From positions 1 through 13,866 of IMG/VR virus record IMGVR_UViG_2690316086_000003: a stretch of DNA of 13,866 bases. The stretch is one strand, 5' to 3'. The DNA is from a virus. Taxonomy: Duplodnaviria > Heunggongvirae > Uroviricota > Caudoviricetes. Shown here piece after piece: positions 1 to 13,866 of this stretch; positions within the stretch are counted from its first letter, which is position 1, and every line of letters starts with the position of its first letter. A model generated the notes under the pieces. It saw nothing but the letters and a program-made list of their open reading frames with translations. It was not told the origin of the DNA and did no database searches. A program made the translations under genes and the position numbers.

Positions 1-539
1 TTACATTTATGCTTAACCCACCCGATGGCATGCAGCTTAAGCTCCGGATACATGGCGTTAACTTCTGGCATTTTCATCAACGCTTCAACGATATGTCCGT
101 CGAATGTTGCCATGTCTTCCTGCAACAATTCCTGTGCGCTAATCACCATATCAACGGTGATGTTTTCACATGTGTCGAACTTAACCATGACAGCGTTCTG
201 TACTTCAGGGGCCAGCTTGTCAAAAGTGACGTTCATCGGATCGGATTCAGTCTCAACCGGGACAAAAGAAGCAGACTCCTCATCCCAGCGGTTTTCCTGC
301 ATATATTCAGCATCCCATGAATCGAGGGCAGGGCGGGGTATGCCAGGTTTATCCTCGCAGACAATAAATTTATAAGCGCAGTCCTGAGCAGCCGGATAAT
401 GTTCCAGGAACTGCCAGTGAAATTTTGCTCGAGCACGGCGTTCGTCGCCAGCTTCAATGGCTGTGGCTACAGCCACAGCGCCTTCTTCCCTTGTTGCCAG
501 TTCGTCAGGAATAGCGGCGCAAATAAAGACTTTACTCAT
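1..539 (-). CDS. hypothetical acidic phage early-region protein; 3' end lies beyond the window start
   Basis: Hand translation of the minus strand from ATG (complement of 537-539) gives MSKVFICAAIPDELATREEGAVAVATAIEAGDERRARAKF... and runs to position 1 with no stop. GAGG lies about 9 nt upstream of the ATG. Absent from the ORF track because it has no in-window stop. The plus-strand ORFs 9..320 and 25..375 are antisense to it. Confidence 0.6.
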   Translation of the reverse strand, partial: MSKVFICAAIPDELATREEGAVAVATAIEAGDERRARAKFHWQFLEHYPAAQDCAYKFIVCEDKPGIPRPALDSWDAEYMQENRWDEESASFVPVETESDPMNVTFDKLAPEVQNAVMVKFDTCENITVDMVISAQELLQEDMATFDGHIVEALMKMPEVNAMYPELKLHAIGWVKHKC

Positions 540-634
540 TTTGTTTTAACCTCATGACAGATTTAAGGATGAATAAATCCCTGCCATTGCTGGCATTTTT
601 AATCCGTTGGTATGGCGTTAATATGGCTGGAGGT

Positions 635-823
635 TTATCCAGCCGGCGTTTCGTTATTCAGGTACAGCAATACTTTTTTTAACGGGAGGCATTCACCGGG
701 GATTTTTTGTTCGTCCCTTACCTGAATGCAGGATGACTTACTGTCATAAATTCCGGTAATCACATTTTGTGGCTCACCCGTTATAAGAAAAACGGTCATC
801 ACCAGTGCAAACGCTGAAGTCAC
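635..823 (-). CDS. small hypothetical membrane protein (62 aa), translationally coupled to the upstream gene
   Basis: GTG start overlaps the upstream stop (GTGA). The N-terminal segment SAFALVMTVFLITG is hydrophobic, consistent with one transmembrane helix or signal anchor. No homology recognised. Confidence 0.35.
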   Translation of the reverse strand: MTSAFALVMTVFLITGEPQNVITGIYDSKSSCIQVRDEQKIPGECLPLKKVLLYLNNETPAG

Positions 824-1008
824 TGCTGTTCTCCGATAATACCAAGTTCAAGAAGGGCAATTCTGGAAAGTATGGAATTATCATTGAGAAGATAAGGTTC
901 ATATTTTCTCATCTTAATGGCATCTTCAGTAAACTCCCGGTTACTGAGCAGAACACCAATATCAAAACAACCTTCAGACGTATTAACGTTTGGTAATAAC
1001 GTTTCCAT
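820..1008 (-). CDS. small hypothetical protein (62 aa), first of two coupled small genes
   Basis: ATG at 1008-1006 (minus) is preceded by GAGGA with a 7-nt spacer. Product METLLPNVNTSEGCFDIGVLLSNREFTEDAIKMRKYEPYLLNDNSILSRIALLELGIIGEQQ. The longer 97-aa version in the ORF track starts at a GTG with no RBS. The stop TGA overlaps the GTG of the next gene. Confidence 0.4.
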   Translation of the reverse strand: METLLPNVNTSEGCFDIGVLLSNREFTEDAIKMRKYEPYLLNDNSILSRIALLELGIIGEQQ

Positions 1009-1575
1009 TATCGCGTCCTCAACAATGAATTTTGTGATGCAGTGCCTGGTGCCTCCAGGTGACGTTAACCAGTTAACAATTAACGCCGGATACAGAGAAT
1101 CCACCCATAACACTGTTTTTGGTTTTAACTGTTCCGCGTGCGCATAGCCGCATTCACCGCATCACAAAATTCACTTTAAAAAGGGCGGCAGAGCAGCCAC
1201 GGAGTAAAACTGATACCGCCAAACGTCACCAGAAAATTGATAACAGAGGGCGTTGCAGCGGGGTTGTCACTTAAGCGTATGGTCAACCTGACAACCCGGT
1301 GTCCTCAACGGGGAAGAAATAACCCCGCCATACTTACCGCCGCGCCATTTCGCGGAGTGCCACAACCGGAAGCGCACGGTCGACGAAAATTTAACGACAG
1401 GCTATCTATGAACCAGCAACCTCGCCGTGCGCTTTCGCGTTATGCTCTGACTTTTCAGAGAAATATCCTTTCAGTAAACTGTCAGTGCCGGATGTTCACC
1501 CGTGTCCGGCGCACGCACTCCACTTTACCCGTGGAGAACTCCTTAATTACCAACCTTAGCTTCGTTGGTTAGCTA

Positions 1576-1794
1576 TTAACGCGGGTATGTAATCATGCTG
1601 GCAATGCTTAATGCCGCTGCTTTTTCCAGATTGGTGATATCCTGCTCCAGAGCGGACAGATTTTCAGCCTGCTTAGCCCTGGCTTCATTGGCCCATTTCA
1701 GATCCTGCGCTGCATTAATTTTCTGGTGCATCCACTCATAAAGTTCATCATCGGTATAGTCTGGCGCGATGATGACGGGTTCTCGTTTCTGCAT
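1576..1794 (-). CDS. small hypothetical early-left operon protein (72 aa)
   Basis: ORF-track entry MQKREPVIIAPDYTDDELYEWMHQKINAAQDLKW...; ATG preceded by GAGGA with a 6-nt spacer. It lies in the same leftward operon as the two small genes upstream of it. Confidence 0.55.
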   Translation of the reverse strand: MQKREPVIIAPDYTDDELYEWMHQKINAAQDLKWANEARAKQAENLSALEQDITNLEKAAALSIASMITYPR

Positions 1795-1824
1795 ACTGAT
1801 TCCTCGCGGTGCTGTTTTCGCTTA

Positions 1825-1953
1825 TCAGCCGTTAGATTTTGCCGAGCTGGAAAGCGCCTGTTTAAATTCGCTGAAGCTGAGAGCTTCTTCGCCTTCGGCA
1901 AGGCCTTCGAAGTATTCTTCGTAAGCCTTTTCCATGATTGTGTCGAAATCCAT
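1825..1953 (-). CDS. small hypothetical protein (42 aa), Rac-type YdaF/YdaG-like position
   Basis: Hand translation gives MDFDTIMEKAYEEYFEGLAEGEEALSFSEFKQALSSSAKSNG. AGGTGG sits 5 nt upstream of the ATG, inside the 3' end of the preceding gene. Too short for the ORF track. Confidence 0.45.
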   Translation of the reverse strand: MDFDTIMEKAYEEYFEGLAEGEEALSFSEFKQALSSSAKSNG

Positions 1954-1954
1954 A

Positions 1955-2110
1955 TCACCCACCTGAATTTCTTTCCAGCCAGCGACGCGCTCCAGATTCG
2001 GTTTTAAACGTTTTGCTTTTGGTATACGTCATCGCGGTGAACGTACCGTCCTGGTTGGGGAACACGCCACATACCAGAGATTCGCTGTTGCCAAGATCGA
2101 TAGTATCCAT
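1955..2110 (-). CDS. small hypothetical protein (51 aa), Rac-type YdaF/YdaG-like position
   Basis: Internal ATG of track ORF 1955..2191 with GAGG 5 nt upstream. Product MDTIDLGNSESLVCGVFPNQDGTFTAMTYTKSKTFKTESGARRWLERNSGG. It is the first gene downstream of the leftward promoter next to the repressor gene. Confidence 0.5.
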   Translation of the reverse strand: MDTIDLGNSESLVCGVFPNQDGTFTAMTYTKSKTFKTESGARRWLERNSGG

Positions 2111-2291
2111 GCTGACCTCATTTCCCCTTAACGCCGGGGTAGCGGAACAAAAACCTGCTGCATAGTTATTAAAGTTGAACCCTGCCGTCATGTTCTTACG
2201 CCTCGGGCTGGCTACTTAACCCCTGACCACTGCCTGGTAACTCGAGGTATTGCCCTGTATTGTGTGGGACGGGATGGGTTGGTATGGGAAA

Positions 2292-2357
2292 ACTATAGGA
2301 AATGCCTAATTACTTGTCAATAGGCTATGCCTAATAATTTGGGCGCGACCTAATAGG
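2292..2357 (-). promoter_or_regulatory. pL-like leftward sigma70 promoter with repressor operator inverted repeats
   Basis: On the minus strand: -35 TTGACA (complement of 2315-2320), 17-nt spacer, -10 TATAGT (complement of 2292-2297). Inverted repeats TAGGA-aat-GCCTA (2296-2308), TAGGC-tat-GCCTA (2321-2333) and ACCTA-a-TAGGT (2347-2357) overlap or flank the promoter. Confidence 0.5.
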
Positions 2358-2428
2358 TGATGGTTTGTGGGAGAGGTAGTAGGAGTTAACTAACGGGAAC
2401 TAGGAATTTCCCGTCGGACCATATAAGT

Positions 2429-2905
2429 TTAAGTTCCTGTCTTGGTGATGTTCTGGCTTTTCCGTTTTGATTCTTGATTTTTCAGATAGTTAGCTACCTT
2501 CATTTCCATTGCGGCAATGTAGGCGCGAACGTCATGATCAACCCAACTAGGCTCCGTAGCATTTCCAGATAAGAGGAAAGCCACAATTGCTCTTTTTTCA
2601 TCAGAGGCGGCTTGATAAAGGCTGTTTATGTCTAAAAGTTCACTTTTTGTATCTGAAGTGGATGGGGTTGGTATGGGGTATTCGTTAAGCCCCCAATGCT
2701 CTGGACCAACCACATCAGAAAAGAAACGCCATAGTTCTGGAAGTTTGTCTTTACTTATCGAACCTTTCTTAATCCAGTCATGGATTGATGGTGGTTGGAC
2801 TTTGAAATGACGTGCGATTTCCGCCTTTGATTTGACGGCTCCTGATGCAATTTTTTTGTTAATGGCCTGCTCTATCGCTCGGCCTAAGTCTTTACCACTA
2901 AGCAT
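2429..2905 (-). CDS. racR: prophage repressor, RacR-like (CI-type HTH repressor)
   Basis: 158-aa ORF MLSGKDLGRAIEQAINKKIASGAVKSKAEIARHFKVQPPSIHDWIKKG... with an HTH near residues 24-47. AGGAGA RBS upstream. Divergent from a Cro-like gene. Length and sequence match my memory of Rac prophage RacR. Confidence 0.85.
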   Translation of the reverse strand: MLSGKDLGRAIEQAINKKIASGAVKSKAEIARHFKVQPPSIHDWIKKGSISKDKLPELWRFFSDVVGPEHWGLNEYPIPTPSTSDTKSELLDINSLYQAASDEKRAIVAFLLSGNATEPSWVDHDVRAYIAAMEMKVANYLKNQESKRKSQNITKTGT

Positions 2906-2958
2906 TGCTTAATAGTCTCCTATGCGCATCGCGTTAGGCAATCCCTACTCTCGATGTG

Positions 2959-3002
2959 TTAGGCATAGCCTATTGACAATTGTATTAGGCTAAGCCTAAT
3001 AT
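2959..3002 (+). promoter_or_regulatory. pR-like rightward sigma70 promoter with repressor operator inverted repeats
   Basis: -35 TTGACA (2973-2978), 18-nt spacer, -10 TAATAT (2997-3002). Operator inverted repeats TAGGC-ata-GCCTA (2960-2972) and ATTAGGCT-a-AGCCTAAT (2984-3000). The block 2959-2979 is the exact reverse complement of 2314-2334. Confidence 0.55.
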
Positions 3003-3029
3003 TGTTGCGTGTTTTTTGGAGTTCATTCG

Positions 3030-3353
3030 ATGAAAAAAGATAACTATTCATTCAAACGAGCTTGTGCTGTTGTCGGTGGGCAATCAGCAATGGCTAGGCT
3101 TTTAGGTGTATCTCCTCCAAGCGTAAATCAATGGATCAAAGGTGTACGTCAGTTGCCTGCTGAGAGATGTCCTGCGATTGAACGAGCAACAAAAGGTGGT
3201 GTCCTGTGTGAAGAACTTCGTCCTGATGTTGATTGGACATACTTACGACGCTCGTCATGTTATTCGCAGAATATGTCGATGAAGCAACCAAATGACGAAA
3301 ACGATCATACCCGAAGCATCAAGAGGCAAATGATTCATGAAAATCAAACATGA
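3030..3353 (+). CDS. ydaS: Cro-like HTH regulator, YdaS-like
   Basis: ATG at 3030 with GGAG 8 nt upstream; the track ORF begins at an upstream GTG. HTH segment GGQSAMARLLGVSPPSVNQWIKG. Divergent from the repressor gene, in the Rac-type order racR-ydaS-ydaT. Confidence 0.7.
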   Translation: MKKDNYSFKRACAVVGGQSAMARLLGVSPPSVNQWIKGVRQLPAERCPAIERATKGGVLCEELRPDVDWTYLRRSSCYSQNMSMKQPNDENDHTRSIKRQMIHENQT

Positions 3354-3762
3354 GCACATCCGCATGGCGATGAATGCCTGGGCATACCCTGATGGTGAGA
3401 AAGTTCCTGCAGCTGAAATAGCCCGGACTTATTTCGAACTGGGGATGACGTTCCCTGAACTGTACGACGACAGCCATCCGGAAGCCCTGGCCCGTAATAC
3501 ACAGAAAATTTTCCGTTGGCTGGATAAAGACACCCCTGATGCTGTTGAAAAAATTCAGGCTCTGTTACCGGCGATCGAAAAGGCAATGCCGCCTCTGCTG
3601 GTGGCCCGTATGCGCAGTCACAGCTCTGAGTATTACCGGGAGATTGTCGAACGGCGGGATCGGCTGGTGAAGGATGTCGACGATTTTGTTGCGTCAGCGG
3701 TTGTTTTGTATGACCAGATGAATCGCGGCGGCCCGGCAGGGAATGCTGTGGTGATGCACTAA
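3337..3762 (+). CDS. ydaT: YdaT-like protein (partner of YdaS in Rac-type prophages)
   Basis: ORF of about 140 aa, MKIKHEHIRMAMNAWAYPDGEKVPAAEIARTYFELGMTF..., overlapping the 3' end of the ydaS-like gene by 17 nt. Length and position match YdaT as I recall it. Confidence 0.7.
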   Translation: MKIKHEHIRMAMNAWAYPDGEKVPAAEIARTYFELGMTFPELYDDSHPEALARNTQKIFRWLDKDTPDAVEKIQALLPAIEKAMPPLLVARMRSHSSEYYREIVERRDRLVKDVDDFVASAVVLYDQMNRGGPAGNAVVMH

Positions 3763-3784
3763 AAGCACGGTGTTCGGGGGTTTT

Positions 3785-4747
3785 ATGAGCAGCAAGCTTC
3801 ATGGTCTTGTCTGGGAAGGGTGCGCCTTCACCGGCATGATCTTATCCAGGGTGGCGGTTATGGCCCGTCTTGCAGACTACAGCAATGACGAGGGTGTGTC
3901 ATGGCCTGCCATTGAAACTATCCGGCGTCAGATCGGTGCAAGAAGTGAATCCACAGTGAAATCGGCTATTGCAGAACTGGCGAAAGAGGGCTGGCTGACG
4001 AAGGAAGAGCGTAAGGTCGGTGGGCGTAATGTAAGCAATATCTATCGGCTTAATGTGGAAAAACTCGAAGCAGCAGCTGCGGCGGCGCGTGAGTCATATA
4101 AACCGAAAAGAAAAATTAGCCCGGCAAAAAATGACCAGTTAACAGTTGACCCGTCAAATATTGCCCCCTCAACGGTTGACCCGTCAAATTTTGATGGATC
4201 AACTGTTGATAAAAAACTGCCGATTAGGGGGGCGATGATTGACCCCGATCCGTCAGTATTAAAACCTGATCCGTCAGATAAAAGATCTTCTTGTCCGGAC
4301 GCTTCGCAACCGGACCCGCAGACGGCTGAACAGGATTTTTTAACCCGACACCCTGACGCGGTTGTGTTCAGTGCGAAAAAACGCCAGTGGGGAAGTCAGG
4401 AAGATTTGGTGTGCGCACAGTGGATCTGGGGACGAATCGTGAGTCTTTACGAGCAGGCGGCCAGCTATGATGGCGAGATCACTAGACCGAAAGAACCCAA
4501 CTGGACAGCATGGGCCAATGACGTTCGCACAATGCGGATGCTGGATGGCAGAACTCACAGACAAATTTGTGAAATGTTTGGGCGTCTCCAGCGGGATTCG
4601 TTCTGGGTAAAAAACATCATGAGTCCGGCAAAACTCCGGGAAAAATGGGATGAACTGGTTATCCGCCTGGGGCGTTCGCCTGCGCAGCGTTGCGTGAATC
4701 ACATTTCTGAACCGGACACTGAAATTCCGCCGGGCTTCAGGGGGTAA
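3785..4747 (+). CDS. phage replication initiator, lambda O-like / YdaU-like (N-terminal HTH domain, low-complexity linker, C-terminal domain)
   Basis: ATG at 3785 preceded by a GGGGG run; the track ORF starts at an upstream GTG at 3770. The N-terminal region (...SRVAVMARLADYSNDEGVSWPAIETIRRQIGARSESTVKSAIAELAKEGWLTKE...) looks like a replication-protein HTH. The central linker is encoded by the direct DNA repeats listed below. The position after the cro-like genes matches the replication module. Confidence 0.7.
   Translation: MSSKLHGLVWEGCAFTGMILSRVAVMARLADYSNDEGVSWPAIETIRRQIGARSESTVKSAIAELAKEGWLTKEERKVGGRNVSNIYRLNVEKLEAAAAAARESYKPKRKISPAKNDQLTVDPSNIAPSTVDPSNFDGSTVDKKLPIRGAMIDPDPSVLKPDPSDKRSSCPDASQPDPQTAEQDFLTRHPDAVVFSAKKRQWGSQEDLVCAQWIWGRIVSLYEQAASYDGEITRPKEPNWTAWANDVRTMRMLDGRTHRQICEMFGRLQRDSFWVKNIMSPAKLREKWDELVIRLGRSPAQRCVNHISEPDTEIPPGFRG
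4138..4277. repeat. iteron-like repeat cluster inside the replication-initiator gene (putative ori)
   Basis: Exact 15-bp direct repeat GTTGACCCGTCAAAT at 4145-4159 and 4175-4189, each containing the palindrome TTGAC-cc-GTCAA. Related palindrome TCAAC-t-GTTGA at 4199-4209. GATCCGTCAG repeated at 4247-4256 and 4268-4277. GTTAAC at 4138-4143. Confidence 0.45.
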
Positions 4748-4787
4748 GTGTTAATTTCTGGTCATGAGGTAACTTTCAGGAGGGCTT

Positions 4788-5210
4788 GTGGCAAAAGTTT
4801 TTACACAAGAAGAGCGGGAAAAAATTAAAGGGCAGGTTGTTGAACTCGTACGCCAGAGTGGGCGCGAGACGTTACGACAACTGGAAACTAAAACTGGGGC
4901 AACAAGATATCTGATGAGCGTTCTGGCCAGAGAGCTGGTTGCCAGTGGCGATGTATACAATTCTGGCTACGGGTTATTCCCGTCTGAACAGGCTCGTAAA
5001 GACTGGCAAAATGCCCGCAAAAAACTCTCAAGGGCAAAGCTGAAGAAACCATCTGCGGTTGATCCGGACCTTATCTGGTCATTACCAGATGGCGAAATAC
5101 GCCGCTACGACAGGCGTCTGAACATAATCTGTCTCGAGTGCCGGAAGAGCGAAGTTATGCAGCGCGTACTGGCGTTTTATCAGGGGAATTTTGAGGAGGT
5201 GGTGCGGTGA
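4788..5210 (+). CDS. hypothetical protein (140 aa), replication-module position
   Basis: GTG start with AGGAGG 5 nt upstream. Product MAKVFTQEEREKIKGQVVELVRQSGRETLRQLETKTGATRYL.... Stop overlaps the next start (GTGA). Confidence 0.6.
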   Translation: MAKVFTQEEREKIKGQVVELVRQSGRETLRQLETKTGATRYLMSVLARELVASGDVYNSGYGLFPSEQARKDWQNARKKLSRAKLKKPSAVDPDLIWSLPDGEIRRYDRRLNIICLECRKSEVMQRVLAFYQGNFEEVVR

Positions 5211-5461
5211 GTGAATCAAAATGCCAGGTTAATGGCAACAAGATAGAACCATGTGCAGCACTGGCAAAGTCCCTTGAGCATGATGCTGAATACACGATGC
5301 GAAAAGGTCTGCTGATATACAAAATCTGGAATGAGAGTTTAACTCGCGGTCCTGATTTTGTGATGTTGCGTTCCGGTGAATTTTCTAAATTACCAGTTCG
5401 GGTTTCATTTTGTCCGTTCTGTGGTGAAAGTCTGAAAACGTGGGAGAACAGAAATGAATGA
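5207..5461 (+). CDS. hypothetical small protein (84 aa) with Cys pairs C6/C16 and C69-P-F-C72 (possible zinc ribbon)
   Basis: GTG start overlaps the upstream stop, with GAGGAGG 7 nt upstream. The four Cys are arranged C-x9-C ... C-x2-C. Its 3' end overlaps the next start (ATGAATGA). Confidence 0.55.
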   Translation: MSESKCQVNGNKIEPCAALAKSLEHDAEYTMRKGLLIYKIWNESLTRGPDFVMLRSGEFSKLPVRVSFCPFCGESLKTWENRNE

Positions 5462-5765
5462 AATTAAAGAAATACCAGTAGTACGTGATGAATATGGCTG
5501 CTGGACGCATCCTGAATATGAAAAATTCTGTGACGGTCGGGAATATATTTCAACGGAAGAGTTTAACGCCTGGATGGAGGAAAATAATCTTCAATACGTC
5601 CTCTGCTTCAGAGATGAAGGATGTGCTGACCTTGATGCGTGTGATGCTGATATTTCTGCATGGGAACCGGAACGACCAGAGGGCAATGGATGGTTTATTG
5701 GTTCAATACATGACACCGAAGATGGCCCGGTTTGTGTATGGCTGAGAAATAAGGCCGAAGCATAA
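5454..5765 (+). CDS. hypothetical Cys-rich acidic protein (103 aa)
   Basis: ATG overlaps the preceding stop. Product MNEIKEIPVVRDEYGCWTHPEYEKFCDGREYISTEEF.... It is the last gene before the AT-rich island. Confidence 0.6.
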   Translation: MNEIKEIPVVRDEYGCWTHPEYEKFCDGREYISTEEFNAWMEENNLQYVLCFRDEGCADLDACDADISAWEPERPEGNGWFIGSIHDTEDGPVCVWLRNKAEA

Positions 5766-6070
5766 AGGCTATAAACCGACTAACAACTAAATACTGAAGA
5801 TTTAAATCAGAAACGATTTTTATTAAATCCTTAACCGGAGGGATTCTGCACCCTCAGAACATCAGGAGGCCGTCTGAAAGGGCGGAACAGATAATGCTTA
5901 CGTTGAAACATTTTATCGACATACCAACATGGTTAGCCGTCATTGCTTTTGTTAAAATACACATCCACTTTTCTGTGCAATGTTTAACCACTGGTCATAT
6001 CAAATGGCATTCATGCGAACCATGATATAGAATCATGGCTTGAGAGAGTCGATGAAAGCGCAACTATGGT

Positions 6071-6649
6071 ATGAGAGACATTGATGTAAGAAAGGCTGTG
6101 CATGCCAAGATTCTGAGAGATCATCATAAAGATCCTGACACCCTAATCATTGATGAGTTTACGATGAATCTAGGGGCTAGCAGAGCTGATATAGCAGTGA
6201 TCAATGGGCTTATACATGGTTATGAGTTGAAGAGCAAGAGTGATAACTTGCTCAGATTACCAGCGCAGGTGCAACATTACTCATCAGTGATGGATAAAGT
6301 AACTTTGGTTGTCTCTGATTGCCATCTTTATGATGCTTTAAGCATAGTTCCATCATGGTGGGGGATAAAGCAAGTTACGCAAGGTGCACGGCAAGGTATC
6401 CATTTAAAAACAATTCGAACTAGCAAGTTGAATCCACAAGTGGACAAACTTTCCTTAACAATGCTTCTTTGGAAAGATGAATTGCTTTCCCTATTAAGTG
6501 ATGTAGGGGAGCTACAGAATTTGAAAAATAAACCTAAACGCGTCTTATGGTCAAAACTCGCCAATAGTATGGATGTTGGCGAGCTTCGTGAAGCTGTTCG
6601 AGTTAAACTTAAAGCCCGTAAAGAGTGGCGAGTTGCTCAACAACCTTAG
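6071..6649 (+). CDS. hypothetical protein with PD-(D/E)xK-like nuclease motif; recalled as 'sce7726-family-like'
   Basis: 192-aa ORF with AT-rich codon usage. Motif arrangement E29 (IIDEF), D40 (RADIAVI), E52-L-K54 (GYELKSK), which is the classic order for the restriction-endonuclease-like fold. Family assignment is from memory only. Confidence 0.7.
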   Translation: MRDIDVRKAVHAKILRDHHKDPDTLIIDEFTMNLGASRADIAVINGLIHGYELKSKSDNLLRLPAQVQHYSSVMDKVTLVVSDCHLYDALSIVPSWWGIKQVTQGARQGIHLKTIRTSKLNPQVDKLSLTMLLWKDELLSLLSDVGELQNLKNKPKRVLWSKLANSMDVGELREAVRVKLKARKEWRVAQQP

Positions 6650-7706
6650 TTATGTGATGGTTTTGCCCAATCCTACGCCATACCTCTGGGCTACCAAATT
6701 TATAGTTACCAGAGGGATTGGCTTTGTAGGCTTGATACTCGTTTGCATAATATTCTATGTCTCTATCTCCCGCACAGAATGTAGGCCCTGAATATTCTCG
6801 ATGAGCAAGAATATCCTCACTATGTTTACCATATTGTTCATAACCAAAGCGATTAGCTACTCTTCCTCGAAATACCCAAAAGTCATTATCTCCAGAGTAT
6901 CTGACGCTGGCAGATACGCTAGGGAATCGCGTCGAAAGCCTATTAAAGTCGGGGTGCTGTACTCCATAATCACTATAAATCACATTTCTGGCAAGTTCTT
7001 TTCTATTCATTAAACTCTGCCATAAAATCCACTCGATTCGAGGTTGAGAATATAGACCAACAGAAATATCACTGAGATCTGTAGGAAATGAACCCCCAGA
7101 AAGAATCACTTTTCTGTATTCATTGAGGTGCGCCAGATTGTTTATCAATCCCATTGCCAAAGTATATAGTTCGCCGGAATTAATTTTATCCTCGGTTAAC
7201 TCATCTCTTAAGTCAATAATTATATCAATATTTGATAAAGGAATTCCCAGATGATTAATGTAATGCGTTATTAATTGTGGGTTAACCAGATCTAACGTGG
7301 TTAATCTCAAGCATATTTCATTCTGCATTAATTCATCAATCGCTCTTTTATAGTTAGATGGGCGAGTTGGTGAACTGACAGGAATAACTCTTATCCCCAT
7401 ATCTCTAACTTGATTAACCGCATTTATTATAGGGTAATGATCTTCAGGAGAAATAAAATGCTCTTCAATTAATAATCCATCAATATAAACACCTTGCATA
7501 TCTGAGCAAGATTTTGAGACTTTCTTTCCGAACTCTATAAGAGTCTCGTTATAACTCTTTAAGGCAATACCTGAATCAGGGTCAATTGGCACTGGTTCAA
7601 TTTCGAGTAATGGCAAAATTTTTGATTTCTTTTCAATGGATAGCTGCGATAAAGCTGATAACTCAGAACGTTTCGCTTTCAGAATAGGAATATATGAAAT
7701 TGTCAT
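6609..7706 (-). CDS. hypothetical protein, recalled as 'beta protein / sce7725-family-like' (function unknown)
   Basis: 365-aa ORF, MTISYIPILKAKRSELSALSQLS..., AT-rich, with AAGG about 8 nt upstream of the ATG. Convergent with the 192-aa gene and overlapping its 3' end by 41 bp. The N-terminal Y-x-P-I-L-K-x-K motif matches my recollection of this family. Confidence 0.8.
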   Translation of the reverse strand: MTISYIPILKAKRSELSALSQLSIEKKSKILPLLEIEPVPIDPDSGIALKSYNETLIEFGKKVSKSCSDMQGVYIDGLLIEEHFISPEDHYPIINAVNQVRDMGIRVIPVSSPTRPSNYKRAIDELMQNEICLRLTTLDLVNPQLITHYINHLGIPLSNIDIIIDLRDELTEDKINSGELYTLAMGLINNLAHLNEYRKVILSGGSFPTDLSDISVGLYSQPRIEWILWQSLMNRKELARNVIYSDYGVQHPDFNRLSTRFPSVSASVRYSGDNDFWVFRGRVANRFGYEQYGKHSEDILAHREYSGPTFCAGDRDIEYYANEYQAYKANPSGNYKFGSPEVWRRIGQNHHITKVVEQLATLYGL

Positions 7707-8263
7707 GTTAATACCTTATACAGAATCAATTAACAATTAATGGTTCTTCGGACATTGAAATTTATATCGCAAAAATTGGCAAACTCTCCTCGACTACTCA
7801 CTTGTGGGTATCCTGGCGTAAAAGGAATGACTTGGCAATACCCGGTGTGATCATAAGTCATTGAAAATGATCATTTTTATCAGTCTTTCTTCCATGATGA
7901 ATGCTAATGCCATTTGATTTGTTGAGGTGAAAACTGTTAAAAATCAAAACGATGTAATTGAAATGAACGTTCGGTAGCATTCACGCTTTAAATGTTTCTT
8001 TTGTGCTGATTGGATGAATTTGGGTCACTTATGATGAGAGATGTTGCAGGAAAAGAAGTTGGCATTGATCTATTGGATAGTTAGAATTGCTGCGGGTGCT
8101 TGAGGCTATCTGCCTCAGGTATGAACACCAAAAGGCAGATAGAGAAAAGCCCCAGTTAACATTACGCGTCCGGCAAGACGCTTAACATTAATCTGAGGCC
8201 AATTTCATGCTTTGCACATGTAGGTTAGCCTCTTACGTGCCGAAAGGCAAGGAGAAGCAGGCT

Positions 8264-8419
8264 ATGAAGCAGCAAAAGGCGATGTTAATCGCCCTGATCG
8301 TCATCTGTTTAACCGTCATAGTGACGGCACTGGTAACGAGGAAAGACCTCTGCGAGGTACGAATCCGAACCGGCCAGACGGAGGTCGCTGTCTTCACAGC
8401 TTACGAACCTGAGGAGTAA
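8264..8419 (+). CDS. hokD: Hok/Gef-family small membrane toxin (51 aa)
   Basis: Product MKQQKAMLIALIVICLTVIVTALVTRKDLCEVRIRTGQTEVAVFTAYEPEE, with one transmembrane helix and the LCEVR signature. GGAG lies 9 nt upstream. The track ORF at 8207 is an in-frame upstream extension. The sequence matches HokD/RelF as I recall it. Confidence 0.8.
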   Translation: MKQQKAMLIALIVICLTVIVTALVTRKDLCEVRIRTGQTEVAVFTAYEPEE

Positions 8420-8487
8420 GAGACCAGGCGAGGGAGAAATCCCTCGCCACCTCTGATGAGTCAGGCATCCTCAACGCACCCGCACTT

Positions 8488-8515
8488 AACCCGCTTCGGC
8501 GGGTTTTGTTTTTTC
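8488..8515 (+). terminator. rho-independent terminator downstream of hok
   Basis: Stem AACCCGC (8488-8494), loop TTCG, stem GCGGGTT (8499-8505), then a T-rich run TTTTGTTTTTT. The hairpin GGCGAGGGA-gaaa-TCCCTCGCC at 8427-8448 lies just upstream. Confidence 0.7.
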
Positions 8516-8586
8516 CTGGCATTCTGGTTTACAATTCGCACGTCAGCCTGAACACCTGACACCTGCTGCGCCAGCAGAGAAAACAG

Positions 8587-8859
8587 ATGGTGCACAAAAC
8601 CAAATTTCACAATTCTGATACCGACCTTGCCATCCGGCATGGGCGGCGTTCACACGCATTTAAAACCGACTGGTACCAACACCCATCATGTACTGAAGAA
8701 CAGGCCGAATGGCTAATTCATAACTACCGCAGACGCGGATACGAGATTAAGAAAGCCCTCAGCCTCGATTATCGTCACTGGATAATCTATGTCAGGCTCC
8801 CTTATTCCGAACGCTCACCGCGCCCATCCCGCACATACCAGCAACGGATCTGGAGGTAA
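8587..8859 (+). CDS. hypothetical protein (90 aa), Qin-type Rem-like position
   Basis: ATG at 8587. Its stop TAA (8857-8859) lies inside the RBS-to-start region of the DUF968 gene. It sits between hok and the DUF968 gene, like rem in the Qin prophage as I recall it. No confident homology. Confidence 0.5.
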   Translation: MVHKTKFHNSDTDLAIRHGRRSHAFKTDWYQHPSCTEEQAEWLIHNYRRRGYEIKKALSLDYRHWIIYVRLPYSERSPRPSRTYQQRIWR

Positions 8860-8860
8860 C

Positions 8861-9910
8861 GTGCGGATATTACTTCGACCTGTTCTGGTACCGGAACTCG
8901 GGCTGGTGGTCCTTAGGCCGGGCCGTGAATCCATGCAAGTATTTCATAACCCTCGAGTGCTGGTGGAGCCTGAACCGAAAAGCATGCGCGGTCTGCCGTC
9001 CGGAGTCGTCCCTGCCGTTCGCCAGCCGCTGGCGGAGGATAAATCATTTCTGCCATTTTTCAGCGATGAGCGGGTGATTCGTGCTGCTGGCGGCGCTGGG
9101 GCACTGTCTGACTGGCTGTTGCGTCATGTCAAATCCTGCCAGTGGCCTCATGGTGACTATCATCACAGTGAAATCGTCATACATCGTTACGGTACCGGCG
9201 CGATGGTGTTGTGCTGGCACTGCGACAACCAGTTGCGTGACCAGACATCCGAATCACTCGGGCAACTTGCTCATCAAAACCTGTCAGCATGGATGATTGA
9301 CGTCATACGCCATGCAATGAATGGCACGCAGGAGCGGGAATTGTCGCTGGCTGAATTATCCTGGTGGGCGGTCTGCAATCAGGTGGCGGACGCGCTTCCG
9401 GAGGCAGTATTACGTCGTTCTCTGGGGTTACGTGCGGAAAAAATCCGCTCCTTGTACCGCGAAAGCGACATCGTACCGGGAGAGCAGACCGCCATCAGCA
9501 TACTGAAACAGCGCACAAAAAATCTTGCGCCGCTGCCTCACGCCCACCAGCAACAGAACCCACCACAGGAAAAGACGGTGGTCAGCATTGCCGTTGATCC
9601 TGAGTCTCCGGAATCTTTCATGAAACGACCTAAACGTCGCCGCTGGGTTAACGAGAAATACACACGCTGGGTGAAGACTCAGCCGTGTGCGTGTTGTGGT
9701 AAGCCAGCCGACGATCCCCATCACCTGATTGGTCATGGTCAGGGCGGAATGGGGACAAAATCTCACGATATTTTCACGCTACCGCTGTGTCGGGAGCATC
9801 ACAACGAGCTTCATGCGGATCCGCTGGCGTTCGAAGAAAAGCATGGTTCTCAGGTTGATTTAATTTTTCGTTTTCTTGATCACGCCTTTGCAACTGGCGT
9901 GCTTGGGTAA
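8861..9910 (+). CDS. DUF968-type prophage protein (YdfU-like) with C-terminal Cys/His cluster
   Basis: GTG at 8861 with GGAGG 4 nt upstream; the track ORF 8789..9910 extends further upstream in the same frame. C-terminus ...QPCACCGKPADDPHHLIGHGQGGMGTKSHDIFTLPLCREHHNELH is an HNH-like or zinc-binding motif. Confidence 0.7.
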   Translation: MRILLRPVLVPELGLVVLRPGRESMQVFHNPRVLVEPEPKSMRGLPSGVVPAVRQPLAEDKSFLPFFSDERVIRAAGGAGALSDWLLRHVKSCQWPHGDYHHSEIVIHRYGTGAMVLCWHCDNQLRDQTSESLGQLAHQNLSAWMIDVIRHAMNGTQERELSLAELSWWAVCNQVADALPEAVLRRSLGLRAEKIRSLYRESDIVPGEQTAISILKQRTKNLAPLPHAHQQQNPPQEKTVVSIAVDPESPESFMKRPKRRRWVNEKYTRWVKTQPCACCGKPADDPHHLIGHGQGGMGTKSHDIFTLPLCREHHNELHADPLAFEEKHGSQVDLIFRFLDHAFATGVLG

Positions 9911-9922
9911 AAGAGGTGACTG

Positions 9923-10282
9923 ATGCTCATAGATTTGGTTTTACCTTACCCGCCGACGGTGAACACTTACTGGCGACGCCGTGGCAGCACATATTTTATC
10001 TCGGAGGAGGGAAAGCGTTATCGCCGGGCTGTGGCGCTTATTGTTCGCCAGCAGCGGCTGAAATTAAGCCTGTCCGGAAGGCTGGCGATAAAGATTATTG
10101 CAGAGCCACCGGATAAGCGCCGTCGTGATCTGGACAATATCCTGAAAGCACCGCTGGATGCGCTGACGCATGCCGGACTTCTCATAGACGACGAGCAGTT
10201 TGATGAAATCAATATTGTGCGCGGTCAGCTCGTTTCTGGTGGGCGGCTGGGCGTGAAGATTTACAAAATTGAAAGTGAGTGA
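9923..10282 (+). CDS. rusA: RusA-type Holliday junction resolvase
   Basis: 119-aa ORF MLIDLVLPYPPTVNTYWRRRG...PPDKRRRDLDNILKAPLDALTHAGLLIDDEQ.... The RRRDLDN and DALT motifs resemble RusA. AAGAGG RBS with a 6-nt spacer. Confidence 0.8.
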   Translation: MLIDLVLPYPPTVNTYWRRRGSTYFISEEGKRYRRAVALIVRQQRLKLSLSGRLAIKIIAEPPDKRRRDLDNILKAPLDALTHAGLLIDDEQFDEINIVRGQLVSGGRLGVKIYKIESE

Positions 10283-10290
10283 GCATAAAT

Positions 10291-10845
10291 ATGATATACC
10301 CGGAAATTACAGGCAAAAGCGGTGAGCATTTACGCCTGAAAACGCTGGAAAGTGTCTGGATCCAGGGGAAACTGCGTATGTGGGGGCGTTGGTCGTATAT
10401 TGGCGACGGTAAGACGGGAAATATGTTCAACCAATTACTGACCTCTAAAAAGCTGACAAAAACGGCAATTAACGAGGCGCTCCGGAGGATGAAAAAAGCG
10501 GGTCTGGACAAACCTGAACTTGAGGCTTTTTTGCGGGATATGATCAACGGCAATCAAAAAAGCTGGCTGGCACATTGTACCGATTCAGAGGCGTTAATAA
10601 TCGACAGGGTTATTGGTGAAGTACTGGCAGGTTATCCCGGGCTGCTCAATGTTCTGAGTCAGCGTTATGTGGGGCGGGGGATGACTAAGCGCAAAATGGC
10701 TGAACTGCTGAATGATGCACATCCGGAATGGAGTTTAAGAACCTGTGAAAGACGCATTGAGCATTGGCTAAAGGTGGCAGAATTTATTTTGTACAAACCA
10801 ATGGTTATGGCTTTTGGTATAGAGAAAAAAGTTATTGCTTTTTGA
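10291..10845 (+). CDS. putative late-gene antiterminator Q-like protein
   Basis: ATG at 10291; the alternative GTG at 10279 overlaps the rusA stop. Position after rusA and just before a short terminated leader. Loose resemblance to small Q/QuuD-type proteins (an MWGRWSY-type segment and basic C-terminal helices), from memory. Confidence 0.5.
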   Translation: MIYPEITGKSGEHLRLKTLESVWIQGKLRMWGRWSYIGDGKTGNMFNQLLTSKKLTKTAINEALRRMKKAGLDKPELEAFLRDMINGNQKSWLAHCTDSEALIIDRVIGEVLAGYPGLLNVLSQRYVGRGMTKRKMAELLNDAHPEWSLRTCERRIEHWLKVAEFILYKPMVMAFGIEKKVIAF

Positions 10846-10922
10846 CGTAAAAACTGCTTCAATTCCGGTAAGCTTCGCAAAGCTGTACCGCGAGGCGAAT
10901 AGCAGACATGGACATTTGAAAG

Positions 10923-10947
10923 AGCCCGCTTTTTGCGGGTTTTTTTA
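10923..10947 (+). terminator. rho-independent terminator (tR'-like) downstream of the Q-like gene
   Basis: AGCCCGC-ttttt-GCGGGT hairpin followed by a run of 7 T. It lies about 80 nt after the Q-like stop, as expected for a late-promoter leader. Confidence 0.65.
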
Positions 10948-11068
10948 TGACTGAAAAACGGCACGGGGCGTTAAATGCGCTGGTGGTTGCGAATACCGGT
11001 CTTTCTGCTTACTGGCTTTTTGGACAAGAGTTATTGGTATGTCACGTTAACCAAAAGGGAAAAAAGAC

Positions 11069-11266
11069 ATGCTAAAACAGCAGGATATGACAGAAACCGC
11101 CAGAGTGGTGTTTAATGAATTAAGCGTTACCGACCCGGCGACAGTCGGGGAGATTGCGCAGAATACTTACCTTTCACGCGAACGCTGCCAGTTAATACTG
11201 ACCCAGCTTGTTATGGCGGGTCTGGCAGACTATCAGTTCGGTTGTTACAGACGCCTTCCGCAGTGA
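11069..11266 (+). CDS. small winged-helix/HTH-like protein (65 aa)
   Basis: AAGGGA upstream of the ATG. The segment TVGEIAQNTYLSRERCQLILTQLVMAGLAD looks like an HTH. The stop sits in the loop of a terminator hairpin. Confidence 0.5.
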   Translation: MLKQQDMTETARVVFNELSVTDPATVGEIAQNTYLSRERCQLILTQLVMAGLADYQFGCYRRLPQ

Positions 11267-11276
11267 AGGCTTTTTT
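11253..11276 (+). terminator. rho-independent terminator
   Basis: GCCTTC (11253-11258), loop CGCAGT, GAAGGC (11265-11270), followed by TTTTTTATTT. Confidence 0.6.
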
Positions 11277-11416
11277 ATTTGTGGTAAATGGGCGGCTGGT
11301 GGGTGTTAGGGGCACCTACCAGCCATCTGCTCATGCGTTGGGTTCACAAGCAAACCTCAGGCCCACTGCTTTGCGCAAAAGCAGAATGAGCCTATCAGAG
11401 ACAGGCTTAATGATCC

Positions 11417-12493
11417 ATGCTTAATACTGTAAAAATATCCAGTTGTGAGTTAATCAACGCTGATTGCCTGGAATTTATCCAGACCTTACCGGAAAACTCT
11501 GTCGATCTGATAGTCACAGACCCGCCATACTTTAAAGTGAAGCCCGAGGGCTGGGATAACCAGTGGAAGGGCGACGATGATTACCTGAAGTGGCTGGACC
11601 AGTGTCTGGCGCAGTTCTGGCGGGTGCTGAAACCTGCCGGAAGTCTTTACCTGTTCTGTGGCCATCGCCTGGCATCTGACATTGAAATCATGATGCGTGA
11701 ACGCTTCAATGTGCTGAACCATATTATCTGGGCGAAGCCGTCCGGACGCTGGAACGGGTGCAACAAGGAAAGCCTGCGGGCGTATTTTCCGGCCACAGAA
11801 CGCATTCTGTTCGCGGAACATTATCAGGGGCCGTATCGTCCGAAAGATGATGGCGATGAGGCGAAGGGCAGGGCACTGAAACAGCATGTGATGGCCCCGC
11901 TGATTTCTTACTTTCGTGATGCGCGTGCTGCTCTTGGGATAACGGCAAAACAGATTGCAGATGCCACAGGAAAGAAAAACATGGTGTCGCACTGGTTCAG
12001 TGCCAGTCAGTGGCAGCTACCGAACGAAAGCGATTATCTGAAATTACAGTCGCTGTTTGCCCGGGTGGCAGAAGAGAAACATCAGCGGGGAGAACTGGAA
12101 AAGTCCCATTACCAACTGGTCAGCACATACAGTGAGCTGAACCGGCAGTACATGGAACTGCTGAGTGAATATAAAAATTTGCGGCGGTATTTCGGTGTGA
12201 CGGTGCAGGTGCCGTACACCGATGTGTGGACGCATAAACCGGTGCAGTACTATCCAGGGAAACATCCGTGCGAAAAACCGGCAGAAATGCTGCGGCAGAT
12301 AATCTGCGCGAGCAGTCGTCCGGGTGACCTGGTGGCGGATTTTTTCATGGGTTCTGGCTCAACCATAAAAGCAGCTATGGCGCTCGGGCGTCGTGCAACT
12401 GGTGTTGAACTGGAGGCAGAACGTTTTGCGCAGACCGTTAAGGAGATTAGTCACATCCTTACATGCTCAATTGATGACGGGAAGGATGGATAA
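11417..12493 (+). CDS. orphan DNA N6-adenine methyltransferase (beta-class, DPPY motif) with a central inserted domain
   Basis: 358-aa ORF. N-terminal motif IV ...VDLIVTDPPYF..., C-terminal motif I ...DLVADFFMGSGSTIKAAMALGRRATGVELE.... An insert of about 150 aa lies between them. No adjacent restriction endonuclease gene is recognisable. Confidence 0.85.
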   Translation: MLNTVKISSCELINADCLEFIQTLPENSVDLIVTDPPYFKVKPEGWDNQWKGDDDYLKWLDQCLAQFWRVLKPAGSLYLFCGHRLASDIEIMMRERFNVLNHIIWAKPSGRWNGCNKESLRAYFPATERILFAEHYQGPYRPKDDGDEAKGRALKQHVMAPLISYFRDARAALGITAKQIADATGKKNMVSHWFSASQWQLPNESDYLKLQSLFARVAEEKHQRGELEKSHYQLVSTYSELNRQYMELLSEYKNLRRYFGVTVQVPYTDVWTHKPVQYYPGKHPCEKPAEMLRQIICASSRPGDLVADFFMGSGSTIKAAMALGRRATGVELEAERFAQTVKEISHILTCSIDDGKDG

Positions 12494-13715
12494 AGATATG
12501 GTCAGTTCAGGCTGTGAAGCAAGTAGACAGATAAGGCTGCAATAAAAACTGACAATAGTAAAATAGCTTTTTCCCAGGTAGTCATGAATACGATCTCTTA
12601 AAGCGCCCGCTGATACCAGCGGGCAATACATACTGGCATTAATGTTAAGTTCAGGGATAATTCATCGTATTTTGTGGTACGACGCTATCAATATTAATAA
12701 ACAGTATTTTTCATGTAAAATTTCTGTTTTTTTGATCTGATTCTCGTTTCCTGGGTTATGATGTTGTTGTGAACCATGCTGTTGAATGATAATGTTCGGG
12801 TATAAAATTGTTGCTGATATGTAGCGCAGTGAGCAGGTGGTATTTCTGTTGCTGAGTGTACGGATACAGTGCTTCCCTCCCTCAGCGGGGGGGCAGGTGT
12901 GCTGTGGTTTTAGAGACACCGGAAACGAGAATGATGCGGGTTTGCTGGTGCCGGGATAGAGTCGCCGGAGGTCATGACATAGAGCAAAAAAGGAATGTGC
13001 ATGCAAATACACACCTCTTCGGAGAGCTCTTCTTTATATGGATGAGCCTCAAGGTCAATAGTTTATCTGTTATGTATTCATATGTTGTTACTTATATAAT
13101 CCATACGGGCATATCATCAGTACACACATACTATTATGGCATTTTATTTTTGTTTTAACTGAATTCCCGGGGCACTCTTTTTGATTTCTGATAAGGAACC
13201 AGAATTTTCTGTTAAATGGTGTCACGTTGTAAATGGTTAATGGAAGCAGCTTATTATCCATAATCACACCTGAGTTAACAGGTGTGAGAATACTTCCGGG
13301 TGGCAGGAACACATCTGACTGATACCAGATTATCAACTTTATTTTACACCATACAGTTGAAAACGTTATTCCGCTTGATGGGCATATCACTGTGTCAATA
13401 ACTATCCATTCCATCTTTTAACCTTCTCGGTACACATTGCTTTCGATTGTTTTGCTAAAAATCATAGTCAATAAATCAGTGTAACTCATTGAAAAAGATC
13501 GTCTTCTTTGTCTTCCTGGGGTTTTCTTTTCTAATTTTGTATCACTTTGGTTCAAGTTGTTTCATTTTTTTGTAATACAAATTAGCAGGATGAGCGGGAA
13601 TATAAAAAAATCGGATGTTTTTGTAATGGATATTATTTTTTTGTAAAATAATGTATTTTTATTTAAATCTCTATCAGAAAAGAATTTATTGTTCCTTTAT
13701 ATGGTGGAAAAGGTC

Positions 13716-13866
13716 ATGGTATTTAAACACTACGATGTGGTCAGGGCGGCGTCGCCGTCAGATCTTGCGGAAAAGCTGACACAAAAACTGAAGGAGGGGT
13801 GGCAGCCATTTGGCAGCCCGGTGGCCATCACGCCTTATACTCTGATGCAGGCCATTGCGGCGGAAG
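13716..13866 (+). CDS. hypothetical phage protein, 5' part (continues beyond the window end)
   Basis: ATG at 13716 with GGTGG 8 nt upstream, after a very AT-rich promoter-like region. Translation MVFKHYDVVRAASPSDLAEKLTQKLKEGWQPFGSPVAITPYTLMQAIAAE... has no stop before the window end. Confidence 0.5.
   Translation, partial: MVFKHYDVVRAASPSDLAEKLTQKLKEGWQPFGSPVAITPYTLMQAIAAE

Follow-up and report, generated by a model that had tools for sequence, protein, structure and literature searches.

How is a prophage gene for a potentially harmful, non-specific DNA methyltransferase kept silent in its host? The question is raised by a 13,866-nucleotide (nt) stretch of Caudoviricetes DNA (IMG/VR record IMGVR_UViG_2690316086_000003, positions 1 to 13,866; hereafter the window), in which a Q-like late antiterminator gene is followed by a small open reading frame (ORF) and then by an orphan N6-adenine methyltransferase of the M.EcoGII family. 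M.EcoGII itself is prophage-borne, non-specific and unexpressed in its host, and is harmful, slowing growth, when expressed constitutively (PMC5778455), but its silence in lysogens was left as speculation in that paper. Our analysis draws attention to the 136 nt immediately 5′ of the methyltransferase start codon, which appear to encode a conserved, structured leader RNA (Table 1). On the sequence evidence this leader is the one element of the locus that seems not to have been described before, the cassette in which it lies being both known and very common.

The leader stood out when the upstream regions of methyltransferase genes from 40 genera were aligned. In random pairs drawn between genera it is 84.8% identical, compared with 72.1% for the coding sequence, and it is kept at loci where other genes replace the small ORF. 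Leader and methyltransferase are found in 2039 of 5426 complete Escherichia coli genomes (~38%), with up to six copies in each, and a pattern scan of viral contigs revealed at least 120 further copies of the leader. Of the 121 viral instances whose downstream DNA is long enough, all but a handful of truncated or disrupted copies have the methyltransferase ATG at +128 to +130 from the leader, and the gene that follows is nearly always the methyltransferase, that is, a member of one gene family. Leaders of the E. coli type are nearly identical to each other; those of a more distant clade of the enzyme are recognisable and much diverged. Indels of 1 nt indicate that the leader is not coding, and for the same reason a 60-amino acid ORF at 11242-11424 was rejected as coding sequence. 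Also rejected was a leader peptide starting from the AUG or GUG of the invariant AUGGGC: in most relatives the frame stops after seven codons (at a UAG in the loop of P2), in the window it has ~34 codons and elsewhere more; it lacks a Shine-Dalgarno sequence and is shifted by 1-nt indels.

Table 1. Positions of the cassette features in the window
Feature	Position	Strand	Basis or remark
Q-like late antiterminator gene, DUF1133 type	10279..10845 (RefSeq start 10291)	+	Pfam, PHROG, RefSeq
Q-proximal leader ending in intrinsic terminator t1	10846..10947 (hairpin 10917-10947 including U tract)	+	Fold energy, conservation
65-amino acid winged-helix-like ORF, phiP27 L23 homologue	11069..11266	+	GGGA Shine-Dalgarno-like sequence upstream
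Terminator t2, 6-bp G+C-rich stem followed by TTTTTTATTT	11253..11280 (stem 11253-11270)	+	Terminator scan
Conserved structured leader RNA of the methyltransferase, 136 nt	11281..11416	+	Conservation, covariance model, compensatory changes
Leader: invariant AUGGGC	11288-11293		
Leader: hairpin P2	11294-11324		
Leader: P3 strands	11326-11331/11349-11354		
Leader: S4 strands	11359-11366/11386-11393		Enclose hairpin h
Leader: hairpin h	11366-11384		CUGCUUUGCGCAAAAGCAG
Leader: segment just 5′ of ATG	11404-11416		Complementary to 11341-11354
Orphan beta-class N6-adenine DNA methyltransferase, M.EcoGII family, 358 amino acids	11417..12493	+	PF01555, PADLOC, M.EcoGII alignment
G+C-rich hairpin GCCCGCUG-AUAC-CAGCGGGC	12605..12624	.	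-17.4 kcal/mol, z -3.67; also inverted repeat I10

The leader is predicted to form three mutually compatible hairpins, P2, P3 and S4 with h. In plain MAFFT alignments 86-95% of cells in the helices are paired, compared with 23-51% once partners are slid, and double changes exceed those in all 500 shuffles, both for S1 and S4 together and for P1 and P3 together. A covariance model built from the close set (R1) has a single match in the window (127.6 bits, E 4.5e-33) and gives one match per locus in 66 of 98 sources, always on the strand of the gene and ending at its ATG. In the covariance-model alignment, which leans toward the structure to which it was fitted, compensatory changes are present in 24 of the 33 pairs (11 of 13 in P2, all six in P3, 4 of 5 in h and 3 of 7 in S4) and 87.8% of cells are paired, versus 30-36% in slid controls. 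An alignment-free comparison of duplex energies gives -21.1 kcal/mol for cognate P2 strands versus -14.0 for non-cognate ones. The excess of G-U over A-C appositions in P2 (66:4) and S1 (44:8) fits a conserved RNA of the same sense as the gene (+ strand).

A perfect 12-nt palindrome, CTTTGCGCAAAG, had been reported in this region in a preliminary description of the window. That 12-mer is not in the sequence, positions 11369-11380 reading CTTTGCGCAAAA, with one mismatch; the perfect palindrome is a 10-mer, TTTGCGCAAA, at 11370-11379, and it forms the apex of hairpin h. Its arms change together in relatives (GCUUU/AAAGC, GCUGA/ACAGC, CGCGA/UCGCG), and it thus covaries as an RNA hairpin instead of standing as a fixed protein operator.

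What might such a leader do? The methyltransferase start codon has no Shine-Dalgarno sequence. The AUGGGC element has two complementary partners, the 5′ strand of P3 (97% of cells paired) and that of S4 (100%), and pairing with either would exclude one hairpin; two complete folds of the leader differ by only ~3 kcal/mol on average. The loop and 3′ strand of P3 can, in turn, base-pair with the stretch next to the ATG on its 5′ side, as in GGUCA/UGAUC. Because it combines three hairpins, an AUGGGC with possible partners in two of these and a stretch complementary to what lies just 5′ of the ATG, the leader is probably a translational gate on a toxic late gene. More tentatively, and with rather less than an even chance of being right, we suggest that it is a new class of cis-acting RNA switch gating translation of a toxic non-specific methyltransferase, in which AUGGGC would toggle between the 5′ strands of P3 and S4 and so free or sequester the segment that pairs with the start region. 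The trigger could be a ligand, S-adenosylmethionine or S-adenosylhomocysteine for instance, cleavage by RNase III of the ~19-bp S1+P2 helix, the enzyme itself, or folding kinetics under Q-modified polymerase. Given that the leader is tied to a single gene family, an autoregulatory or processing leader would be more typical than a metabolite riboswitch.

The leader appears to be uncatalogued. None of the 4227 families in Rfam 15 matches it at the gathering threshold, no + strand match with E≤5 was seen in 11267-11416, and none with E≤0.1 to the leaders of 17 related loci. In an incomplete literature search, itself weak evidence of absence, we found no paper linking M.EcoGII with a leader, riboswitch or untranslated region.

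Variant leaders are of interest in their own right. Four viral contigs (L066, L108, L134 and L154) carry the small ORF, the terminator t2 and, of the leader, no more than the first ~50 nt (AUGGGC and most of P2), followed by an unrelated A+T-rich region and an unrelated 237-amino acid ORF, which points to a recombination breakpoint inside the leader. A sister clade of methyltransferases (L187, L189, L192, L207-L209, L211, L213, L228 and L237) has a different conserved leader ~150 nt 5′ of the gene, with GCCUUGAGUACCUGAGACCCA, UGGAGAGGAAGC, a variable hairpin and UUCAAGGCUC in that order, then AGGAGA and the AUG; it has a long-range closing helix and two hairpins that keep their pairing as the sequence changes, and this leader has no Rfam match either. 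In a third group (L212, L214, L220, L229, L226, L234 and L248) the leader is shortened, reading AAAUGGA(C/U)GGCUGGUGG, then a P2-like hairpin and CAUUCGCC, after which the sequences diverge. Leaders of this group may show which parts are dispensable.

The gene that the leader precedes had been described as a DPPY-type adenine methyltransferase, an orphan without a restriction partner, and this description holds. PF01555 matches residues 29-340 (E 5.6e-43), PADLOC MTase_II matches the protein at 3e-160 and RefSeq labels it 'DNA-methyltransferase'; the motif order is that of the beta class, with DPPY at residues 35-38 (nt 11519-11530), the target-recognition domain in the centre (with its linker at about nt 11819-12196) and FMGSG (FxGxG) at residues 310-314 (nt 12344-12358). 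No restriction gene is adjacent, the neighbours being the small ORF, iraM and a SASA esterase gene, and among them PADLOC matches the methyltransferase only. Compared with M.EcoGII (349 amino acids; the sequence compared was a slightly noisy machine-read copy of the published one), 321 of 350 aligned positions are identical (~92%), with no gap in residues 120-270 and at least 90% identity across the central region (residues 135-260). The family is conserved end to end across the Enterobacterales.

The preliminary description had also singled out a large central insert. There are indeed ~93 extra residues between the two conserved blocks, relative both to the Pfam model and to a solved homologue of 249 amino acids (9c3u), but they do not make the enzyme unusual, since they correspond to the target-recognition domain and charged linker of the M.EcoGII family. 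In M.EcoGII the centre is described as a four-helix bundle with a helix-turn-helix (HTH), serving as target-recognition domain, together with a long charged linker, the domain having no solved relative; M.PflMI, the closest site-specific relative, is predicted to share the fold (PMC11551740). No solved structure matches the central region of the window protein by sequence. An AlphaFold2 model built from a 13-sequence alignment, shallow because only close homologues were available, was too poor for a fold search (average predicted local distance difference test score, pLDDT, of 45), its sole agreement with the published model being the all-helical secondary structure of residues 146-255. Judged by sequence, then, the methyltransferase is not novel but one more copy of M.EcoGII, and the 'insert' is an ordinary domain of the family.

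Several published results bear on the activity of the enzyme. All tested reconstructed ancestors of the family methylate both DNA and RNA, and Anc291 and SUPREM have been shown still to be non-specific (PMC11551740); one tested ancestor is only 66% identical to the window methyltransferase. Homologues at 92-93% amino acid similarity were typed as 'nonspecific' by REBASE-based typing, and an O111 lysogen (95JB1) with two such homologues yielded no extra methylated motifs (PMC6602927). From M.EcoGII and these ancestors, which bracket it well, we infer that the window enzyme would likewise methylate adenines non-specifically. Because homologues of M.EcoGI and M.EcoGII gave no methylation signal in lysogens (PMC5778455, PMC6602927), comparison of the methylomes of a lysogen and a cured strain would be expected to come out blank.

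The location of the gene offers further clues. The window is 100% identical to a Rac-like lambdoid prophage of E. coli O103 strain ML775, in which the gene order is a DUF968 gene, rusA, the Q-like gene, the small ORF, the methyltransferase, iraM (on the opposite strand), nanS-p, holin, lysozyme and terminase, the genes from nanS-p onward reaching past the window. The cassette shares its strand with Q and with the holin and lysozyme genes. Profile matches of the Q-like ORF to DUF1133 (E 3.7e-105), to Phage_antitermQ (PF06530; 33.1 bits, cut-off 26) and to PHROG_753, 'anti-termination protein Q-like' (E 5.8e-81), together with the RefSeq label 'DUF1133 family protein', confirm the earlier suggestion of a Q-like gene upstream on the same strand. 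The proposal that this is the slot 3′ of Q where lambdoid phages carry cargo is likewise upheld: phiP27 and Stx2a phages have the identical cassette there, followed by transfer RNA (tRNA) genes and stx. At 87-93% DNA identity the cassette is present in phiP27, in phage 1720a-02 and in many Stx2a, Stx2c and Stx2d phages, and in phiP27 and the Stx2 phages it sits between Q and the tRNA-stx segment. Phage 1720a-02, which had been named as having a very similar enzyme (PMC5778455), matches the cassette at 92% DNA identity, and the match includes the first terminator, the small ORF and the leader.

Between Q and the methyltransferase lie two terminators. The one expected in the leader after Q, t1, proved to be strong: a 13-bp hairpin running into a U7 tract, with a fold energy of -18.2 kcal/mol (z -4.68, none of 200 shuffles being as stable), and ending 102 nt past the Q stop codon. 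Our terminator scan missed it, presumably through extension of the stem consuming the U tract. In phiP27, an Stx2a phage and a Rosenbergiella prophage the stem differs in sequence yet its structure is retained, and DNA homology to Stx phages with other Q types begins inside t1, at ~10935. The Q-proximal leader is, in position, equivalent to the short pR′-tR′ transcript. Membership of the IsrK family (RF01394) was considered for this leader and rejected, this best of its Rfam matches, full-length at 10872-10945, scoring 19.8 bits against a gathering score of 50; several unrelated small RNA models score similarly on the same stretch, and the match thus reflects mostly the terminator hairpin. The second terminator that had been proposed, t2, was located by the scan; its stem contains the stop codon of the small ORF. 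Weak on its own, it is accepted as credible solely because in other genera a hairpin is preserved here by compensatory changes (GCCTTC/GAAGGC, GCCTCC/GGAGGC, GCTGCC/GGCAGT, CCTCGC/GCGGGG), regardless of the gene upstream.

Both of the terminators detected are 5′ of the methyltransferase gene, and no terminator with a U tract was found 3′ of it. The hairpin at 12605-12624 has no U tract on the + strand and is, for this reason, not a clear terminator of the cassette. A consensus-type scan found no sigma-70 promoter on the + strand between 10200 and 12600. The label 'moron', which in the strict sense denotes a gene with a promoter and terminator of its own, is accordingly not one we retain, neither having been found (for the promoter, in the consensus sigma-70 scan). 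A weak candidate promoter, TTGCTT (10835-10840) and TTCAAT (10858-10863) 17 nt apart, may be noted, if transcription were to start near 10872.

Taken together, these observations suggest the following scheme. In the lysogen, transcripts from 3′ of Q would stop at t1, and any read-through would stop at t2. After induction, Q-modified RNA polymerase would pass t1 and t2, transcribing the methyltransferase gene and then the lysis genes, and the enzyme would methylate adenines of the replicating phage DNA in any context. Progeny might thereby be protected from most restriction sites that contain adenine, at the cost of sensitivity to nucleases dependent on N6-methyladenine (m6A). The 136-nt structured leader, preceding a start codon that has no Shine-Dalgarno sequence, would act as a third lock, which we propose because indiscriminate methylation harms the host. 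Late control of the methyltransferase by Q, as put forward earlier, is still the best reading, with two terminators upstream, no + strand promoter found and homologues silent in lysogens; we infer dependence on Q from strand and gene order, the promoter search, the terminators, the stx precedent and the silence in lysogens. In a single judgement that takes in this mechanism as a whole, it is likely that the locus forms the promoter-proximal portion of a late operon in a Rac-like lambdoid prophage of E. coli O103 and that its two-gene cassette is a widespread one.

A number of points weigh against this explanation. The non-specific activity, toxicity and silence in lysogens all come from papers on homologues, the mechanism here being built on sequence, and the last ~12 residues of the window enzyme differ from those of M.EcoGII and the Stx-phage copies, homology ending at ~12435-12444. 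Neither pR′ nor qut could be located, by consensus scan and manual comparison, either in the window or in the Rosenbergiella homologue, whose Q belongs to the same family; comparison of the two by hand gave non-canonical promoter spacings only, and a short shared GCTGTAYC stretch was seen by eye. Taken alone, t2 is not beyond chance (centroid -8.9 kcal/mol, z -0.24), the scan having found four terminator-like sites where 3.4 were expected. The small ORF is missing from about a quarter of loci, other genes taking its place. As to the leader, the covariance-model alignment (A7) has the lean already mentioned, the sequences are phylogenetically related, with the result that shuffle controls overstate significance, and the permutation counts for the duplex energies were not used because a pairing meant as a negative control outdid every permutation as well. 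P3 shows the opposite bias from P2 and S1 (A-C 37 versus G-U 9). Pairing with the start region has modest support, at 67.7% paired versus 16-49% in controls, and AUGGGC, being invariant, places its alternative pairings beyond covariation testing.

Other explanations were weighed. If the ~93 residues that separate DPPY from FxGxG beyond the Pfam model and solved beta-class enzymes were a novel inserted domain, then the enzyme might be an unusual site-specific orphan that recognises a new motif or acts epigenetically in the lysogen; the want of a sequence match to any solved structure and the predicted sharing of the target-recognition fold with the site-specific M.PflMI would fit. We regard this as very improbable: the centre is at least 90% identical to that of an enzyme that methylates in any context, the domain (four-helix bundle with HTH and charged linker) has already been described, the region is family-wide rather than an insertion in this copy, and homologues leave no methylation signal in lysogens. 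Just as improbable seems a recent spread, by horizontal transfer, of a single stretch of DNA whose leader has no function of its own. The cassette is mobile and very common in E. coli, and the near-identity of leaders of the E. coli type is what such spread would produce, but across genera the coding sequence falls to 72% identity while the leader remains at 85%, and in the distant clade the sequences of the hairpins are almost wholly replaced with pairing kept, changes on both sides being seen in 11 of 13 pairs in P2 and all six in P3.

Two further explanations, each unlikely though less so than those above, concern how the region upstream of the gene acts. It might work as DNA, an operator or promoter bound in the manner of a C protein by the winged-helix protein, with TTTGCGCAAA as the site. 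Controller proteins encoded upstream of methyltransferase genes are a known arrangement, a winged-helix-like gene is directly upstream in most loci and the 10-bp palindrome is perfect. The leader is unchanged, however, where the small gene is missing or replaced; the arms of the palindrome change together, as befits an RNA stem and not a fixed protein site; the G-U over A-C asymmetry points to one transcribed strand; and the consensus scan found no promoter. Alternatively, the cassette might after all be a true moron with its own promoter, active in the lysogen, and the leader the 5′ untranslated region of an independent transcript. Blocks of homology do set in and break off abruptly at the edges of the cassette, which recombines between phages whose Q genes differ, and promoter assignments are open as long as pR′ has not been located. 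Yet no sigma-70-like promoter was found on the + strand at 10200-12600 or in the Rosenbergiella homologue, a terminator stands directly before the leader in every context and none with a U tract stands after the gene, and the enzyme family is silent in lysogens.

The other gene of the cassette had been taken for a small HTH protein. The 65-amino acid ORF is indeed present, but matches of the HTH type are weak: the protein matches PHROG_331, a family with no assigned function (E 2.8e-37), and TrmB only below the cut-off (E 0.0044, 17.3 bits against 25.6), while among 22 homologues 18 match DprA_WH (best E 3.3e-6), 11 TrmB and eight HTH_20, mostly weakly. A PDB profile search gave marginal winged-helix matches only; its top match was a repeat artefact in a lectin neck region and was discarded. 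A homologue lies 5′ of the methyltransferase in ~30 of 43 genome loci and about nine-tenths of viral instances, making the protein a frequent but not obligatory partner.

Other parts of the window may be mentioned briefly. Downstream of the methyltransferase an A+T-rich spacer (12494-13087) with several promoter-like sites on the minus strand leads to iraM (RefSeq name; an anti-adapter stabilising RpoS) at 13088-13414 (-), where Stx phages have tRNA genes and stx, and a SASA-family esterase gene (nanS-p-like) starts after it at ~13716 (+). In the early region a convergent overlapping pair, annotated 'sce7726 family' (6071-6649, +) and 'beta family protein' (6609-7706, -), may be a partial or variant anti-phage defence unit, the products matching PADLOC models 'cll' (E 2.4e-28) and PD-Lambda-2_C (E 1.8e-41), respectively. 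The window has two Rfam matches at the gathering threshold, DicF small RNA at 1183-1234 (-; 75 bits) and sok antitoxin RNA at 8094-8269 (+; 119 bits), the latter adjoining hokD (8264-8419); neither would be surprising in a Rac/Qin-like prophage.

Taken by itself the enzyme brings nothing new, M.EcoGII being already sold as a reagent and used for chromatin and RNA mapping. The anatomy of the locus, with two terminators past Q and a structured leader lacking a ribosome-binding site, offers instead a testable reason for the silence of the family in lysogens. Since many Shiga-toxin phages have the cassette directly 5′ of stx, no late transcript in them can reach the toxin gene without first passing through it. 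The leader is a candidate new regulatory RNA, strongly covarying and apparently uncatalogued, carried by over a third of complete E. coli genomes and by numerous other Enterobacterales. Should it prove to be a true switch, it would be an accessible new regulatory RNA that could serve to control expression of a toxic enzyme, and the unrelated structured leader of the sister clade would mark convergent control of these genes at the level of RNA.

Comparison with known systems places these features in context. M.EcoGII and M.EcoGI of E. coli O104:H4 C227-11 (Murray et al. 2018, PMC5778455) are prophage-borne orphans with the same motif order, domain and linker; M.EcoGII has 349 amino acids, against 358 and a different C-terminal tail for the window enzyme, whose activity is assigned by likeness. 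The gene's position after Q, the two terminators and the leader RNA are not described in the M.EcoGII literature that we examined. In phiP27 (L23-L24) and the Stx2a, Stx2c and Stx2d phages the order and spacing are the same (terminator, 65-amino acid ORF, terminator, leader, methyltransferase), but tRNA genes and stx come next and Q is of a different family, whereas the window has minus-strand iraM, nanS-p and the lysis genes.

At the level of transcription the closest parallels are the pR′-tR′ transcripts of lambdoid phages, namely lambda 6S RNA and StxS (PMC7547250), where an intrinsic terminator no more than ~100 nt past Q likewise gates everything beyond; stx is transcribed from pR′ under Q control (PMC7547250). 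The window has no sequence similarity to these and adds a second terminator and a structured leader, and its promoter and Q-binding site were not located in our scan. Riboswitches, protein-binding leaders and leaders processed by RNase III resemble the methyltransferase leader in having a conserved multi-hairpin 5′ region, possible alternative pairings and a start codon without a Shine-Dalgarno sequence; the window leader differs in matching no Rfam family and in being tied to a single gene family. The nearest functional analogue, by analogy of arrangement, would be the isrK-orf45-anrP locus of Salmonella Gifsy-1 (PMC4825925), which shares the Q-like gene, the short terminated RNA, the small ORF and a downstream gene. 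Sequence kinship is absent (19.8 bits against the 50 required) and the downstream gene there is an antirepressor rather than a methyltransferase, but in Gifsy-1 the read-through messenger RNA is translationally inactive until its structure is remodelled (PMC4825925), much as we suggest for the leader described here.

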